From: a virus | Lineage: Duplodnaviria > Heunggongvirae > Uroviricota > Caudoviricetes | Length of the DNA: 64,000 nt | Strand: one strand, 5' to 3' | Virus record (IMG/VR): IMGVR_UViG_2778261268_000002 | In this document: piece after piece, positions 2,119 through 39,354 of the stretch | Numbering within the stretch: position 1 is the first letter of the stretch | Layout of the letters: each line of letters begins with the position of its first letter | The notes under the pieces: generated by a model | Database searches by the model: none | The model's input: the letters and a program-made list of their open reading frames with translations, nothing else | Told to the model about the DNA's origin: nothing | Translations under genes and position numbers: made by a program

Positions 2119-5037
2119 TTAAATACTCCCCGCGTTATACCACGTTCCATTAATGCAATACTGAATTGGCCTTGCCTGAGTTGTATCAATTAATTCATCA
2201 CGGTTTCCGTTAACTGAACCCGTAACGACATAACCTGACCTGTCAGACCAGCCGGGACCATTCCATGTCTGAACAGATGACAGACCGCCAAGGCGAATAC
2301 CTGTAATAAACCTTGAGTTACATTCTGCCTGCGTATATGCTCCAACATCTCCCGCAGAGGGTTTGCGGGTTGTGGTGTAAAACTCTGACCAGTCAGCTTC
2401 AAAGCCATAACCATCTCGCGCTGAACGATAATAAATACCGCCGTTCTTATAATTCACACGGAACTGAACCGCCGGGCAACTCCCCGCATTCATATTAAAG
2501 TGAAGAATCAATGTTGACGCTCCACTAATAGTCGCATTATAAACGCCGCTATTTGAGTTCCATCCAACAGCTTTGTCATTTCCAACAGTGCTTCCTGTCT
2601 GCCCTAAAGCAAATGCAGGCTGCTGATTTTTGGTACTGTAGTCACGCCGCCAGCCTGGCGCATAATCTCCACCGTGGTTTATATAAGTAAATTGTGCATT
2701 AGTAGTTCCGCCACCGCTGGAAGTGCTCGGGGTGGTTACACGGATGGTCATGGCACCTTTATTACCCATAACCTCAATAACGCAACCTGCAAGATGAATA
2801 GTTCCACAGCCAGTATCGGTAATAATTTTATTATTGCCGTATGACCATGAACATTTGCACATCCAGTATGGGTGATTGAATGCCCCTTGAGAATCCAGCC
2901 ATTCAATCAATTGTGCCGTCGTCCAGTTTCCTGCACCTGTGCTAATAGCACCATGAAAAGAGCGGCAAGCACCTATTGTTTGCGTAAATTTATCTTTGTT
3001 TGGAATATCTGCGCCGTTCTGTTTTTTCTGCAATGATCCAGCGGCTAATTCTACGGTTTGCTCAAGATTTAAATCTTCCGCCGTTAACTCAATGTTTTTA
3101 GAACCATCAAACGAGACACCGTTAATAGTACGTGCTGTCTGCAATTTAGTCGCTGTAGCCGCATTACCAGAGGTATCCTGATTCCCTTTGGCATTAACGC
3201 CGGGAACGGAATCTTTTGACGTATAGACCTGTGCCCATTCAGACCAGTTGGCAGAATCAGTATCCCGCCGCGAACGGATATGTACGGGCGCATGGGCACC
3301 GCTCGTGCCACTCCAGCCAATGAATAACTCACCTTCGCCAGCAGCGGTGGCACCTTTAAGGTGAAGCACATTGCCATAGGGGGAAGGGTAGCCATTGTTG
3401 TATGCCTCATACAGCTGAATCCCGGATGTTCCCTGTGCATTCGCCTCCAGGGCCGTTACGCGACCGCGCGATACCAGAGTATTGATATTAATGTCACCAG
3501 AACCATCGAACCTGACGCCATTAATGTTTCTGGCTGTTTTCAATTTCGTTGCGGTATCGGCGTTCCCTGTCAGCGCCCCGGTGATCCCGCCGTTGAAAGT
3601 CTGGCGTGCACTCCATGTGTTAGCCGTGCTCAACAGGGGGATCTTTTCACCGCTGGTACCGAGTTCTCTTAAACCAAGGTATTGGATAACGGCCAGTGTG
3701 CTTGTTTTAGCCAGAATATCGCGACCGACTGACGTTAAATCAGTCTGAGCTACCGTATCCTTACCAGTGAAATAAGGCAGTTTGTTTGCACCAGTCGCAA
3801 GGGCAGCGAGAGCGGTTAAAGTTGCATCCAGAGGCTGTTTGCCTGCCAGCGCATTTGTCATTGTTGTCGCAAAGTTCGGGTCATTGCCAAGTGCTGCGGC
3901 AAGCTCATTCAGGGTATCAAGAGCTTCTGGTGATGAACCAACCAATGCGGATATGGCAGCTCTTACATAAGCGGTCGTAGCAATCTGCGTGTTATTCGTA
4001 CCCTGTGCAGCGGTAGGCGCAGTAGGTATTCCCGTTAATGCAGGACTTGCTAAAGGAGCTTTAAGAGCCAGAGCATTGTTGATAGTTGTGCTGAAATTCG
4101 GGTCGTTATTGATCGCTGCAGCTATTTCTTTAAGCGTATCCAGTGTGCCTGGTGCACCGTTGATAAGTGCCGTTATAGCTGCCTTAACAAAGGCTGTATT
4201 TGCGATCTGCGTGCTATTTGTACCTTGCGCTGCCGTCGGCGCGGTTGGCGTTCCTGTCAGACTCGGGCTTTCTATTGGCGCTTTGGTATCAGCAAGATCT
4301 TTTACAGACTTAACGGCTTTAGGGGTAGCCGCCATTGTTTCGCTGTCGCTGTTAGTTTCGCTACTGAGCTGAACTAATCCCTTTTGCGTTGTGCTTGCAT
4401 CCTGCGCCGTATACTTACTTTTCGCCAGATCGTAAGCTTTTTTAACTGCCAGCGAACTTGCAGCAACATCACTTCTGCTACTGGTTACAGAGTCTGAAAT
4501 ATCAATGCCGATCGTGCGGTTGATACGCTCGGATGTATCAATCATCTCCTGGGTAATGGCAGATACACCAGCAGGGATATTCACCGTACAAACAAGCAGC
4601 TCCCCATCTCCTAACTGATATGAATCGGTATAGGTTCTGGCAATAAATTCGGCCGCATAAATATGTGACGCTGTATTAACCTGATAGGTATCTTCTCCAA
4701 GGAGGTATCTTCCCTTCAGCACAATTGCATATTTCTTGCCTGCGCTAAGTGCAAGAGAAATATCCTTACGTTGCTGAATAGTTACCTGGTAGAATTCACC
4801 AATATCCACCGACGCCGCGCCTGCGGTTTTATCACCATCCACTGAGGTGATTAACAGGTTCATCCCACCACTAGGCTTAGGTAAGAAACCGGCATAAAAT
4901 CCCGGGTCAACAATCCCTCTGAATTTTCGGTTTAGCGCGGCTGACAGATATGGTTCGTGGTATTGCACATCAGCCACCAGAGCCAACGACTCGGGTGATG
5001 GGTAAGTAACCGATGTAACAACTGTAACGTCATTCAT
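2119..5037 (-). CDS. S: Tail fibre protein (constant N-terminal part plus currently attached variable part)
   Basis: 973 aa from ATG at 5037 (RBS AAGGA upstream); Ala/Thr/Gly-rich repeats, [13 protein letters not shown] and [13 protein letters not shown] fibre motifs; the track ORF start at 5124 is an upstream in-frame extension. Confidence 0.85.
3664..3689 (+). other. cix: Inversion crossover site inside the tail-fibre gene
   Basis: TTCTCTTAAACCAAGGTATTGGATAA, 13/17 identical to the inverted site at 1-17; lies in codons ...VIQYLGLRE. Confidence 0.6.
3829..4269 (-). repeat. Internal tandem duplication (two units of about 73 codons) within the tail-fibre gene
   Basis: Protein residues about 257-329 and 330-403 repeat: SP(S/A)LTG(T/I)[23 protein letters not shown]...LDTL.E.AAA..NDPNF. 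Confidence 0.6.
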
Positions 5038-35359: not shown

Positions 35360-37374
35360 GAGAGCTGTGCTATGGATCTGTTTGCAGTGGAATTGAAGCC
35401 GCGAGCATTGCCTGGGAACCGTTGGGTATGCGTCCGGCGTGGTTTGCTGAGATCGAGCCTTTTCCATCTGCCGTTCTTGCGCACCGCTGGCCCCATGTCG
35501 CCAACCTTGGCGACATGACAAAACTCGCCCAAAAAGTCCAGGCAGGAGAAATTGAAGCCCCTGATATGCTCGTCGGGGGTACGCCTTGTCAGGCATTCAG
35601 TATCGCGGGCTTACGTGGTGGGCTTGATGATGAGCGCGGCGCGCTAACTTTGAAGTATGTGGAGCTTGCAAATGCAATTGACGACAAACGGGCTGAGTCC
35701 TTCCTCAAACCAGCAGTTATCGTCTGGGAAAATGTCCCAGGAGTCCTGTCATCAGCAGATAACGCGTTCGGATGTTTCCTTGCCGGATTGGCTGGAGAAG
35801 ATGCGCCATTCGAACCTGGTGATCGACCTGAATCACGAAAAAGTAATACGTTCTGGCGGTGGGATGTCAAAACCGGTTGCCATGCTCCAAAGTGGCCGCA
35901 GTGTGGTTGTATTTATGGACCGCAGCGAAAAGTGGCCTGGAGAATCCTTGATGCCCAATACTTCGGAGTGGCACAACGACGCCGACGCGTGTTTGTTGTC
36001 GCAAGTGCTCGAACAGACCTCGATCCCGCAACGGTACTTTTTGAGTTCGAAGGCGTGCGCCGGAATATTGCGCCGAGCAGAGGCGAGGGGAAGGAAACTA
36101 CCAGATATACTTCAAACATCGCTATCAGAACTTGCGATGATACAAACATAATTGCCATGGCACATGGGCAAGGAGGGGCTGAGATAAAAACCGATAATTC
36201 GGCACCAACTTTGACATGTAACCATGAAGCACCAATTGTATTGCTCGGCGACGGTAGAATGCGCCGTCTTACCCCTGTCGAATGTGAAAGGCTGCAAGGT
36301 TTTCCTGATGGGCATACGTTGATCCCGACGGAAAAGCGTAAAAAAGTTAATTCAGATGAACTGGCATATCTTCGCAATCACTATCCAGATTTAAGCGAAG
36401 AAGAGGTCGCGATGCTTGCAGCTGACGGACCGCGTTACAAAGCGATCGGCAATAGTATGGCAATACCAGTAATGTGCTGGATTGGAGATCGGATTACTAA
36501 GGCCGTATGTCGGCAGAAAGAAGGAAGTGAAACAAAAGAGCGAAAAGTTAAACCAGCGGCAGAATTCGAACGGTCCATATTCAAATGGGCTGGTGGAAAA
36601 TTTGGTGTTCTGGAACAAATCTTTCACTATTTGCCAGAAGGGAAGCGCCTGATTGAACCTTTCGTTGGTGGCGGAGCTGTCTTCATGAATGCCGGATACC
36701 AGGAAAATCTGCTAAATGATGTGAATGCTGACCTGATTAACTTTTACAAGACTCTGCAACGCGAGGCGCATTCACTTATCACTCTGGCACATCGTTTCTT
36801 CCTGGACTACAACACCCAGGAGGGATTCCTGGCAGTACGGAATGCGTTTAACAAACAAGTCTATGATGATTTACATCGCGCAGCGGCGTTTTTGTTCCTG
36901 AACCGACATTGTTTTAATGGATTGACGCGCTACAACCAGGCCGGTGAGTTCAATGTCGGTTATGGGAAGTATAAAACTCCGTATTTCCCATTACAGGAGA
37001 TGGAAGCCTTCCTCGGTGCGGAAGGGCGGTCTGAGTTTGTATGCGGTGATTTTGCAGCAGTGATTGAAGCTGCCGGAGAAGGAGATGTCATCTTTTGCGA
37101 TCCGCCGTATGAACCGCTCCCCAATACAGAGGGGTTTACGAACTATTCCGGTCATGACTTTAAGTTTGAAGAGCAAAAACGCCTGGTGTCTCTGTTGACG
37201 GATGCTCATCGCCGAGGTGCAAAGGTACTCATTACTAACAGTGGCGCGCCAAACGTCAGAGAACTTTATCAGGACAGTGGCTTCAGAGTGGAACCTCTCT
37301 TTGCCAGACGTTCTGTGTCTTGTAAGGGAGACACTCGTGGTGTTGCTCATGACGTTATGGCTATATTGCTCTAA
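35356..37374 (+). CDS. dmt: Bifunctional DNA methyltransferase (N-terminal cytosine-C5, C-terminal Dam-like adenine-N6)
   Basis: GTG start overlapping the hrdC stop; C5 motifs [27 protein letters not shown]; C-terminal WAGGK and DPPY motifs. Confidence 0.8.
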
Positions 37375-37381
37375 TAAATTT
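37365..37381 (+). promoter_or_regulatory. Repressor (C1-type) operator overlapping the dmt stop codon
   Basis: ATTGCTCTAATAAATTT followed by an inverted degenerate copy AAATTTATTAGTGTAAT. Confidence 0.55.
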
Positions 37382-37558
37382 ATTAGTGTAATATCACCTC
37401 AATGAATCGTGATTTATAGAGCGATTTAGCTGTTAGCCGCGACAGGCGCGGCGGCAAGTATGGCGGGGTAGTGACTCCTTCCCCATCATGACGCCGAGTT
37501 GCCAGGTTGACCATACGCCTAAGTGGCAACACCGAAGTGCGTTACGAGCTTCCAGTTT

Positions 37559-37584
37559 GCCCATCTTCGGGTGGGCGTTTTTTT
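37559..37584 (+). terminator. Rho-independent terminator
   Basis: GCCCATC-TTCG-GGTGGGC followed by TTTTTTT. Confidence 0.6.
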
Positions 37585-38050
37585 CAGGGTTTTCGTCATG
37601 GTTAGCGACTTTGCGGCGGTTTAGAAACTGACCATTAAAGTAAATGCAAACGATGATCTGATGATGGTAGCGGCCTAAGAAGCCAGACGCCACGGGGTAT
37701 GAGTCGTCCCCCGTCAAAAAATCGACCGCAGAGTGTCCCCGTCTGTGTATTAGGGAACGGGGAGGCACAACAGGTAAGGGCGCTGGTTCGATTAACCAGA
37801 TGAGCGAGAAGGGGTCATCTTTTTGGTCAGCGTCCTTACCTGTTACGTCCTTTTTCATTCTGCGTAACAGCAATTGCTTTTAGCAATTTGAAGATAACGT
37901 CCTACTACGGGTGTATCCCGTCATGCTGAAGGCGCTAATCACGCTGGAAGCCAGGGTTGTGCATCCCCTGTTACCGAATTGCAGCCAGGGCGCGGTGCGC
38001 CGAAAAGCATACGGAGGTGGAAGCCCTCGCCGGAGACGTACCCGGCAAGT

Positions 38051-38126
38051 GATGGTGTAGCTCAGCGGTTAGAGCGGTTGACTGTTAATCAACGGGTCGA
38101 TGGTTCAAATCCATCCACCATCGCCA
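38051..38126 (+). tRNA. tRNA-Asn (anticodon GTT)
   Basis: Cloverleaf with acceptor GATGGTG/CACCATC, anticodon loop CTGTTAA, T-loop GGTTCAAATCC, encoded CCA. Confidence 0.9.
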
Positions 38127-38128
38127 AT

Positions 38129-38204
38129 GCCGGTTTAGCTCAGTTGGTAGAGCGCCTGCCTTGTAAGCAGGATGTCAGCGGTTCGAGTCCGTTAACCGGC
38201 ACCA
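38129..38204 (+). tRNA. tRNA-Thr (anticodon TGT)
   Basis: GCCGGTTTAGCTCAGTTGGTAGAGC..., anticodon loop CTTGTAA, T-loop GGTTCGAGTCC, encoded CCA; 2 nt after tRNA-Asn. Confidence 0.9.
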
Positions 38205-38767
38205 GCACAACAGGTAAGGGCATTCTCCCTTATAGGGCTTGGCTTAAATGCATCGAGTGCTCTTACCGTTGTGATGAAGTGCAGCTCTTTGAAGCAACCA
38301 GAAGATAAGCATCTGGCTTCACAACATAAACCGCAGGAACGACCAATAAACGGTAGTCCGTATGGAGAACACCCCGTTGAGGAAGAGGCCTGGCCGGAAC
38401 CGTAACCGGCGACTGGTAATGTGTGTAAATGGAGCGAAATATGTGGGCGTTTAACGGGATACGGGTTGTAACAGCGATTATTAACGGCGAACTTAAGTAT
38501 TCACGTTTCGAGACAAATGAACGTGATGGGAAATGTATTGGTGTGCGGTTAGTAAGAGAATACGCATAACAACTACAACGTTGAGAACACTGGCGTAACG
38601 GGGTCATATCCCAATCTATGAATAAATGTTGCGTTGCAGCGTGACAACCAGTGTTCTCAACATTGTGGTGAATGCACAGGCTGATGTGCCGCAACTACAG
38701 TAGTGCGCGCTTTGCGGGGCTTGCTACAACCCTGTGTCGGAGTTCAGCACCGACCATCACAATCACT

Positions 38768-38854
38768 GGAGAGTAGGGAGCATGGTGCTCAAACGGTCTT
38801 GAAAACCGTCCCATTGCGCAAGCGATGATGGTTCGATTCCATTACTCTCCGCCA
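38768..38854 (+). tRNA. tRNA-Ser-like element (anticodon TGA; class II, possibly pseudo)
   Basis: Acceptor GGAGAGT/ACTCTCC, anticodon arm ACGGT-CTTGAAA-ACCGT, long variable arm with GCAA tetraloop, T-loop TTCGATT, CCA; D-arm is short. Confidence 0.45.
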
Positions 38855-39117
38855 GTGCAACGTTAAGAGTATTTGGCTAATTAAGCGAATGCCGGAAGCA
38901 GAACCGGATCACCAAATGCGTACAGGCGTCATCGCCGCCCAGCCAGCCAAGTGCTCTTACCATTGCGGTGAATGCGGCTATGCGCACGCGGAACAGTTAA
39001 AACAATCCTCCTTAGTGGTTAAGTCAAACATCCCGGCGTTAATTGTTAACTGGTTAACGTCACCTGGAGGCACCAGGCACCGCAGCTTTTTTATTCGTTA
39101 AATAATGGAGTGAGAGG

Positions 39118-39354
39118 ATGCAGAACAATCCGAACAAATGTCGAACGCTATGGGTGCGGTTATATATTTATGCCGTCCTCTGTTTGATTGTGTCACTGGT
39201 TCTGTATGTTTGGCTTTTGCCAAATATGATCTCATCTAACAGCACAATACTTGTATTGTTGGGAGTCCTTTTCGCGCTCATTTACCCGGCTTTCGCAGTA
39301 GTCTTTTTTCGTGAAAAAACCAGGAAATTAATTAATGAAAAAAACGTTGATTAG
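39118..39354 (+). CDS. Small integral membrane protein
   Basis: 78 aa, two hydrophobic helices; overlaps the start of the downstream lipoprotein gene. Confidence 0.5.
   Translation: MQNNPNKCRTLWVRLYIYAVLCLIVSLVLYVWLLPNMISSNSTILVLLGVLFALIYPAFAVVFFREKTRKLINEKNVD

Follow-up and report, generated by a model that had tools for sequence, protein, structure and literature searches.

A tRNA-Ser(UGA) gene carried by P1-type phage-plasmids and its likely membership of the phage-borne (8/4) class of serine tRNAs

What is the fourth tRNA-like element in the P1-type phage-plasmid of IMG/VR record IMGVR_UViG_2778261268_000002, and is it likely to work as a serine tRNA? The window, by which we mean the whole stretch of 64,000 nucleotides that was analysed, is a phage-plasmid of this type, with a C4 antisense RNA, C1 operators and a dmt-tRNA-ban region that matches those of P1, P7 and D6. 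A sequence-only reading had described one element of this region as an unexpected fourth tRNA-like gene (Ser, anticodon TGA), because P1-type phages are usually described with three tRNAs, and had suggested from its short D-arm that it may be a pseudo-tRNA or a regulatory element. Every feature listed in that reading is present in the sequence, including the length of 87 nucleotides, the 7-bp strands of the acceptor stem (GGAGAGU and ACUCUCC), the anticodon loop CTTGAAA, the variable arm closed by GCAA, the T-loop TTCGATT, the encoded CCA and the short D-arm. The count of three tRNAs is also true of reference P1, which has genes for tRNA-Asn, tRNA-Thr and tRNA-Ile and none for tRNA-Ser.

The element is a genuine tRNA-Ser(UGA) gene. 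That reading had called for a check with tRNA predictors, and ARAGORN returns tRNA-Ser(tga) at exactly 38768-38854, with the anticodon placed at position 33, bearing out the assignment as a class II tRNA-Ser(UGA). Folding of the sequence beats 200 of 200 shuffles (z = -3.24). The general Rfam tRNA model RF00005, applied to the window at its gathering score, finds the other three tRNAs only, and in a permissive Rfam search the top match for the element is the tRNA-Sec model RF01852 (45.1 bits, gathering score 47, E = 1e-7). The gene, its parts and its neighbours are listed in Table 1.

Table 1. Features of the tRNA-Ser(UGA) gene and its surroundings in the window
Feature	Position	Strand	Basis or remark
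tRNA-Ser(UGA) gene, 87 nt with encoded CCA; putative non-canonical 8/4 class II	38768..38854	+	ARAGORN; tRNA-Sec model 45.1 bits, threshold 47; PGAP; family covariation
Acceptor stem, 5' strand GGAGAGUA, positions 1-8, partners 38843-38850; predicted eighth pair A8-U65	38768..38775	+	homology
Linker G9 G10	38776-38777	+	5' of D-arm
Compact D-arm, stem GAGC/GCUC around AUGGU, or GAGCA/UGCUC around UGG	38778..38790	+	covariation
AA linker	38791-38792	+	3' of D-arm
Anticodon arm ACGGU-CUUGAAA-ACCGU; anticodon UGA at 38800-38802	38793..38809	+	sequence; ARAGORN
Long variable region: CCC, stem AUUGC/GCGAU around GCAA, then G49	38810..38827	+	sequence
T-arm, predicted 4-bp stem AUGG/CCAU, T-loop UUCGAUU	38828..38842	+	conservation of pair 50-64; RNAalifold
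Acceptor stem, 3' strand UACUCUCC, discriminator G73 (38851), encoded CCA (38852-38854)	38843..38854	+	sequence
Bivalent C1 operator Oban and overlapping ban promoters	37365..37392	.	~1.4 kb upstream of tRNA-Ser; orientation same as the four tRNA genes and ban
Canonical tRNA-Asn(GUU)	38051-38126	+	ARAGORN; Rfam 74.5 bits; same transcription unit as tRNA-Ser
Canonical tRNA-Thr(UGU)	38129-38204	+	ARAGORN; Rfam 74.9 bits; same transcription unit as tRNA-Ser
Canonical tRNA with CAU anticodon, annotated tRNA-Ile (AUA reader) in P1, P7 and RefSeq	40190..40265	+	ARAGORN; Rfam 64.7 bits
Structured downstream sequence that travels with tRNA-Ser in P1-family elements	38855..39086	+	fold; near-identity of window, D6 and P7

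Judged by its identity elements, the gene is that of a complete serine tRNA. SerRS recognizes the variable arm, G73 and the acceptor stem independently of the anticodon (PMC9976931), and the window tRNA has the full set: a long variable arm, G73 and the pairs G1-C72, G2-C71 and A3-U70. Together with the serine anticodon, these are also the features of a canonical class II serine tRNA. The variable region of 18 nucleotides contains a 5-bp stem with a GCAA loop, and this stem shows compensatory changes in close relatives (for example AUUGU...ACGAU in member L196). The anticodon loop CUUGAAA is the same as that of host serT. What sets the molecule apart is its compact D-arm, whose stem of 4-5 bp falls within the 4-6 bp found across the family, tRNA-Sec having a longer one of 6 bp.

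This unusual layout is shared by a large group of homologues. Hundreds of plasmids from Escherichia, Salmonella and Shigella carry copies with 95-100% identity, P1-like plasmids of Klebsiella have versions with ~88% identity to the window tRNA, and the copies in P7 (unannotated) and D6 (annotated) are 98.9% and 97.7% identical, respectively. The same odd layout is seen in rV5-like phages (~89% identity), in a Pseudomonas phage whose homologue has the anticodon AGA (still serine), in T5-like and T4-like Klebsiella phages, in tRNA-Ser1 of T5 and in many IMG/VR contigs, and it is kept across phage families at about 70% identity. The BLAST homologues, in the selection of which the anticodon played no part, all have serine anticodons (UGA in seven, AGA in one). 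A sub-threshold top match to the tRNA-Sec model is common to the window tRNA (45.1 bits), T5 tRNA-Ser1 (42.9), the rV5-like homologue (41.2) and those of Riker (38.0) and ATCCa (36.5). RF00005 is matched normally by the canonical Ser(GCU) tRNAs that these phages also encode, but not by the 8/4-type relatives tested. The GenBank record of Riker marks its homologue as a pseudogene.

A broader family set was gathered with two pattern scans of viral metagenome contigs in which the contested positions were left free, and about 200 distinct candidates were found among the matches listed. The first pattern, with a spacing of 8-11 from AUGG to the anticodon loop, missed the subtype of the window, which has a spacing of 12; the second used a spacing of 12-13. 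Closure of pairs 1-7 with 66-72 was a condition of membership. Among the matches listed, 93 combine a UGA anticodon with a compact D-arm, and 59 have the exact layout of the window. The latter were aligned with MAFFT to give the alignment referred to here as A2. Parsing of 111 members from the matches listed gave a D-loop AUGG in 70 (the window has AUGGU or UGG) and, at the discriminator position, 85 G, 16 U and 10 A. The D-stem covaries at 4/4 pairs in A2 with 98.7% of cells paired, and homologues display compensating substitutions of the form GAGC/GCUC, GGGC/GCCC, GCUC/GAGC and GCUA/UAGC. The D-loop UGG is invariant in A2 and so is the T-loop, the conservation of the T-loop and of the motif YUUGAA being by construction since both were fixed in the patterns.

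How the paired positions are divided between the acceptor and T stems is the question on which the class of this tRNA turns. Positions 8, 9, 49, 50, 64 and 65 of the window tRNA are A, G, G, A, U and U, a combination compatible with 7/5, 8/4 and 9/3 splits, because A8-U65 competes with G49.U65 and A50-U64 with G9.U64. Single-sequence minimum free energy folding yields a 9-bp acceptor stem and the ARAGORN drawing a 7-bp one, and RNAalifold, given no input structure, produces an 8-bp acceptor stem with a 4-bp T-stem. When the three models are imposed on A2 (n = 59), the 8/4 model leaves 98.0% of cells paired with a covariation score of 0.731, as compared with 96.8% and 0.699 for 7/5 and 96.7% and 0.696 for 9/3. 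Per-helix pairing under the 8/4 model is 96-100% of cells, and all helices covary. Four rows of A2 (L053, L066, L148 and L221) sit one column out of register at the 5' end and were retained; they contribute noise against the 8/4 and 9/3 models only, and alignment-free indexing provided a cross-check.

The individual pairs show where the models part. Pair 8-65 is kept in 57/59 rows of A2 (AU 40, GC 8, UA 5, UG 2, CG 1, GU 1; unpaired 2), as is pair 50-64 (AU 41, GC 14, UA 2; unpaired 2), and each of the two has 16 double changes among the 59 layout-matched members. The competing pair 49-65 (GU 34, GC 4, AU 3, UA 1) is unpaired in 17 rows, and 9-64 (GU 38, GC 3) is unpaired in 18. Alignment-free counting gives 56 members paired at 8-65 against 37.4 expected and 57 paired at 50-64 against 43.1 expected, neither count being reached in any of 20,000 shuffles, in a single-pair control that ignores relatedness (the 59 members form ~44 clusters at roughly 90% identity). 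The corresponding values are at chance for 49-65 (42 paired, 42.9 expected) and for 9-64 (40 paired, 41.0 expected). The 9/3 fold suggested by single-sequence folding was rejected, since 9-64 is at chance and 50-64 covaries. With A8-U65 and G49.U65 both possible in the window tRNA itself, we assign it the 8/4 split by homology to the more divergent members, and the 7-bp acceptor stem of the sequence-only reading would give way to one of 8 bp followed by a T-stem of 4 bp.

The assignment has to be weighed against the view that this is an ordinary, functional 7/5 serine tRNA with a reduced D-arm, built on G49.U65 and A50-U64, which, in this subfamily, would bear no more than a superficial likeness to the 8/4 class. 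That view draws on the invariance of the six contested positions (A, G, G, A, U, U) in the window tRNA and its P1-like, rV5-like and Klebsiella P1-like relatives, where both folds are possible, as well as on the ARAGORN drawing and on the 96.8% of A2 cells that the 7/5 model still leaves paired. Moreover, among the 33 members of a subgroup without the additional nucleotide 5' of the D-stem, 29 pair at 49-65 and only 21 at 8-65, so that both solutions may occur in nature. Within the layout group of the window, however, it is 8-65 and not 49-65 that pairs far more often than chance, and among the 17 members with a nucleotide other than U at position 65, 14 pair at 8-65 and only 5 at 49-65. RNAalifold also picks the 8/4 fold, and an A8 in place of the near-universal U8, followed by two linker nucleotides, fits it as well. 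The family data thus disfavour the 7/5 reading, which we regard as unlikely. A canonical class II tRNA-Ser with a 7/5 split fits poorly on further grounds: the RF00005 threshold is not reached, A8 is predicted to pair with U65, and the D-loop of 3-5 nucleotides retains only the GG of the A14/R15/G18G19/A21 core.

The 8/4 assignment places the window tRNA beside a class that is already described. Mukai et al. (2017, NAR 45:2776; PMC5389517) found tRNAs with 8/4 and 9/3 acceptor/T splits among the false positives of tRNA-Sec covariance models, and reported an "(8/4) tRNA-Ser" from bacteriophages. The likeness to the latter takes in a predicted 8-bp acceptor stem and 4-bp T-stem adding up to 12 bp, a long variable arm, a serine anticodon and a sub-threshold tRNA-Sec match (45.1 bits in the window, 36.5-42.9 bits in the relatives). 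It may extend to the D stem-loop, which is Sec-like in having a loop of the tetraloop type but has a shorter stem than tRNA-Sec. The discriminator is G73 here and U73 in some members. The same paper shows that 8/4 and 9/3 allo-tRNAs of Silvibacterium are folded, processed and serylated in E. coli and are used there by EF-Tu and the ribosome. Unlike the description given there of allo-tRNAs in general, with a long D-stem and a longer anticodon stem, the window tRNA has a D-stem of 4-5 bp and an anticodon stem of 5 bp (ACGGU/ACCGU), the next positions being A and C, which cannot pair. Unlike in most allo-tRNAs, its anticodon agrees with its serine identity, and thus no recoding is implied.

The closest parallel outside the P1 family is tRNA-Ser1(UGA) of T5 (NC_005859, 30845-30934). 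It has the layout of the window tRNA position for position, with A8 G9 G10, a 5-bp D-stem, a GUGG loop and the AA linker, and it shares the elements GAUGG...CCAUU, the loop CUUGAAA and the sub-threshold tRNA-Sec match (42.9 bits). It differs in having U73, a length of 90 nucleotides and another variable arm, and in lying within a 25-tRNA array of a lytic phage. A note in the T5 GenBank record states that anticodon replacement makes tRNA-Ser1(UGA) an effective amber suppressor, an activity on record for the T5 tRNA and not for the window gene. The host tRNA-Ser(UGA), encoded by E. coli serT, resembles the window tRNA in its anticodon loop, G73, GGA... acceptor start, long variable arm and encoded CCA. 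Unlike the window tRNA, serT is canonical, with U8, a 3-4 bp D-stem, a large D-loop (GCCGAGCGGUUGAAGGC), a 7/5 split and a match to the general tRNA architecture. Bacterial tRNA-Sec (RF01852), the best Rfam match, likewise has more than 7 bp in its acceptor stem, a compact D-arm whose tetraloop contains YGG, and a long variable arm. It differs in its anticodon (UCA, reading UGA, as against UGA, reading UCA), in a helix of 13 rather than 12 bp (8/5 in bacteria) and in its longer D-stem. Anticodon and helix length, along with the score of 45.1 against 47, led to the rejection of a tRNA-Sec identity. We regard the window gene as likely to encode a functional, non-canonical serine tRNA with anticodon UGA that belongs to the phage-borne (8/4) tRNA-Ser class.

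Nor is the gene new to P1-type elements. PGAP annotates a tRNA-Ser at this element in 330/5,426 complete E. coli genomes, one annotated copy being 100% identical over a 141-nucleotide query. The neighbouring Asn-Thr tRNA pair, taken to mark P1-type elements, is present in 696 genomes, so that roughly half of these elements carry the fourth tRNA. The places of the tRNA-Ser are on plasmids in 333/335 cases, and the plasmid nature of P1-type elements bears on any attP role of the gene. The D6 record (MF356679, 7145-7231) annotates its tRNA-Ser, with the remark that tRNAscan-SE left the amino acid uncalled, and a D6-like Salmonella plasmid, pYU39_89, was published with four tRNAs for Asn, Thr, Ser and Met (PMC6799933). 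The copies of D6 and RefSeq P1-type plasmids are 97.7-100% identical to that of the window and likewise lie between tRNA-Thr and tRNA-Ile. Thus the gene was already known from PGAP, the D6 record and the paper on the D6-like plasmid, and its structural class has been in print since 2017. The fourth tRNA looked unexpected because reference P1 and RCS47 are without the gene, and their lack of it also indicates that it is dispensable. The main value of the present analysis is a correction, in that the gene is neither new nor anomalous for P1-type phages: tRNA content varies among these elements, which matters whenever reference P1 is taken as the norm. What we add is covariation evidence by which the 8/4 class would include the tRNA-Ser of T5, of rV5-like phages, of P1-family plasmids and of several phages of Klebsiella and Pseudomonas.

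The position of the gene offers a plausible route to its expression. It has tRNA-Thr on one side and tRNA-Ile on the other, and it points the same way as ban. The upstream operator Oban contains an exact match to the C1 operator at 37365-37381 and an inverted copy at 37376-37392; the Oban/Pban region is identical to the annotated one of P1 and P7, and the P7 record states that Op(ban) controls tRNA gene expression. A scan of 37000-40700 found no consensus sigma-70 promoter, and we therefore attribute expression of the tRNA-Ser to the annotated ban promoters by homology. A terminator-like hairpin is present at 37555-37577, between Pban and the tRNAs. Downstream, the structured sequence that accompanies the gene includes a long predicted hairpin (38856-38967) and an STnc100-like element (38964-39084) with a sub-threshold score of 40.1 bits for RF02076 (threshold 47). 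The window, D6 and P7 are nearly identical up to the sequence ...CACCGCA, beyond which the cargo genes differ: TerB/TciB in D6 and P1-type plasmids, and a 78-aa membrane protein with a 275-aa SPFH-type lipoprotein in the window.

Codon usage bears on three of the four tRNAs. When 53 long ORFs of the window are set against a host sample of only 42 E. coli K-12 genes, UCA makes up 20.7% of serine codons (14.1 per thousand) in the former and 10.8% (6.4 per thousand) in the latter, ACA stands at 16.1 and 8.0 per thousand, and AUA at 11.4 and 2.8 per thousand, enrichments of ~2-fold, 2-fold and 4-fold, respectively. UCA is the top serine codon of the window ORFs, and ACA and AUA are the codons read by the phage Thr and Ile tRNAs, so that a codon-supply role fits all three readers of A-ending codons. 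The gene is probably functional, and its product would act as follows. Once C1 repression of the ban promoters is lifted, the tRNA-Ser would be co-transcribed with tRNA-Asn, tRNA-Thr, tRNA-Ile and ban and would be processed by host RNase P and 3' nucleases. Host SerRS would charge it with serine by reading the long variable arm, G73 and the G1-C72, G2-C71 and A3-U70 pairs rather than the anticodon, and EF-Tu would be able to deliver it because the 12-bp acceptor/T helix is preserved. On the ribosome it would read UCA and related UCN codons, by the same logic as the phage tRNAs that read ACA and AUA. Since its anticodon loop is that of host serT, the usual modifications and UCN decoding are to be expected.

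A more ambitious possibility is that the 8/4 body and Sec-like D-arm serve a counter-defence purpose beyond decoding, keeping a serine tRNA available when those of the host are destroyed. According to this idea, the 8/4 body would be a phage-specific adaptation rather than a neutral variant, in a serine tRNA lineage handed from one phage to another unrelated one, and would allow escape from host nucleases or toxins directed at serine tRNAs (the HNH effector of type I-A retrons, for example) or from some other host factor that handles tRNAs. In its favour, phage attack leads FORC82, a type I-A retron of E. coli, to deplete the four tRNA-Ser species of the host, and the D-loop is where T5 and host tRNAs mostly differ (both PMC12475279). 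The 8/4 class is kept across many phage families, and phage tRNAs are known to escape tRNA-targeting defences (PMC10264068 and PMC11555353). Were it true, P1-type plasmids with the tRNA-Ser would gain a counter-defence advantage over those without it. Nevertheless, T5 failed to evade the FORC82 retron despite a full tRNA set that includes the 8/4 Ser1, and its tRNA-Ser(GCU) was cleaved (PMC12475279). A tRNA with anticodon UGA cannot read AGY codons and would not, alone, rescue a total loss of serine tRNAs, and the anticodon loop is the same as that of host serT, which leaves no room for escape through the loop. We consider a counter-defence role improbable on present evidence. Escape from nucleases through the anticodon loop (PMC10264068) was itself rejected because the loop is identical to that of the host. 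A paper on bacterial Schlafen proteins contains no serine-specific result.

Alternatively, the cloverleaf might be a structural signal rather than a decoder, for instance a site for RNase P or RNase E processing in the ban-operon transcript or a boundary of the cargo cassette. The surroundings lend themselves to this idea: the polycistronic unit is long, structured RNAs with hairpins at 38572-38669 and 38856-38967 flank the gene (z = -3.86 for the upstream flank), a repeat confined to this region comes after each tRNA unit, and the tRNA and the 230 or so nucleotides that follow it travel together as a module next to differing cargo genes. A processing site, however, needs no serine anticodon in combination with serine identity features, and the homologues that were not chosen on the anticodon have serine anticodons throughout. 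In addition, homologues are found in ordinary tRNA arrays of lytic phages that lack any such cassette context. We find the signal explanation very hard to credit, and a serine tRNA active in decoding remains our preferred reading.

The decaying relic of a serine tRNA, out of use in translation, that the sequence-only reading had offered from the short D-arm is the least credible explanation of all: the sub-threshold score with the general Rfam model, the missing amino acid call by tRNAscan-SE in D6, the pseudogene label of the Riker homologue and the lack of the gene in P1 and RCS47 are its grounds, but all helices covary with 96-100% of cells paired in each, the D-stem does so at every pair, the D-loop UGG is invariant (as is the pattern-fixed T-loop), G73, the acceptor pairs and the variable arm are intact, the gene is 95-100% identical in hundreds of plasmids with its odd layout kept among phage families at ~70% identity, and the T5 homologue works as a suppressor according to its GenBank note. 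Membership of the 8/4 class would explain why general tRNA models miss these genes, why an amino acid went uncalled and why pseudogene labels have been attached to them.

Judging from the genes it holds in related elements, the slot flanked by tRNA-Ser and tRNA-Ile is a variable cargo site. Genes resembling the cargo of the window are present in Stx and P88/phiP27 prophages, and its lipoprotein is annotated elsewhere as either an SPFH-domain protein or a putative serine protease. In place of this membrane protein and lipoprotein, the P1-family elements D6 and P7 and plasmid NZ_CP028585 carry TerB/TciB in the same slot, whereas P1 itself carries plp, upl and tciABC there. The position after tRNA-Ile differs as well, being occupied by ban in the window but, in the plasmid NZ_CP028585.2 with its 100%-identical tRNA-Ser, by a gene whose product is annotated as a member of the Thoeris anti-defense Tad2 family (3431-3741 of the fetched locus). 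We take this gene as another sign that the region gathers accessory and counter-defence genes.

Features around the tRNA genes of the window
Feature	Position	Strand	Remarks
Terminator-like hairpin, then U run	37555-37577	+	Between ban promoters/operator and tRNA genes
21-nt repeat TGYTCTYAMCNTTGYGRTGAA	38258-38278, 38652-38672, 38952-38972	+	3 copies in window
STnc100-like element (prophage sRNA family, RF02076)	38964-39084	+	40.1 bits, sub-threshold (threshold 47)
Cargo, tRNA-Ser to tRNA-Ile	39118-40162	+	78-aa membrane protein and 275-aa lipoprotein

The copies of the 21-nt repeat are confined to the tRNA region of the window, where none would be expected by chance. One follows tRNA-Thr and one follows tRNA-Ser, and two of the three each supply the 3' side of a long hairpin, at 38572-38669 and at 38856-38967. 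Every P1-family locus fetched has one to three copies, including those of P1 and RCS47, both without tRNA-Ser; the rV5-like loci fetched have none. The repeat may mark junctions for the exchange of cargo cassettes or be part of small RNA modules. The STnc100-like element, conserved together with tRNA-Ser in D6 and P7, ends in a CCUGG...CCAGG hairpin that is followed by a U run in this window. A relationship between STnc100 and the PasD sRNAs that Stx prophages encode has been reported (bioRxiv 10.64898/2026.05.13.724894). At the other end of the region, the terminator-like hairpin falls within a stretch annotated in P1 as dicF-like, and expression of the tRNAs and ban from the Pban promoters would require read-through.

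The tRNA sets of P1-type elements vary in more than one way, since the locus of the P1-like phage vB_EcoM-Ro157c2YLVW (L004) has an extra tRNA-Tyr(GUA) between tRNA-Asn and tRNA-Thr (1632-1718 of that locus) and received no ARAGORN call for tRNA-Ser. Roughly 65 nt of window sequence downstream of tRNA-Ser is common to rV5-like phages. In two rV5-like loci (L005, 590-688; L006, 589-687), the interval separating tRNA-Ser from tRNA-Thr holds an ARAGORN prediction of 99 nt, labelled 'tRNA-???', whose anticodon has four bases (atcc) and which scores 37.5 bits with the Rfam tRNA model.

Further class II tRNAs with a compact D-arm occur in IMG/VR viral contigs among the matches listed (L181, L194 and L222, for example), several of them with Tyr (GUA) or other anticodons. 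In the listed subgroup without an extra nucleotide before the D-stem, pair 49-65, the mark of a 7/5 acceptor/T-stem split, is formed in 29 of 33 sequences, as against 21 of 33 for pair 8-65, the mark of 8/4, a bias suggesting that 7/5 tRNAs with a compact D-arm may also exist. A separate architecture, GGAAGYG-GUCCGA-AUGG-ACGAGG..., likewise recurs in IMG/VR contigs among the matches listed.
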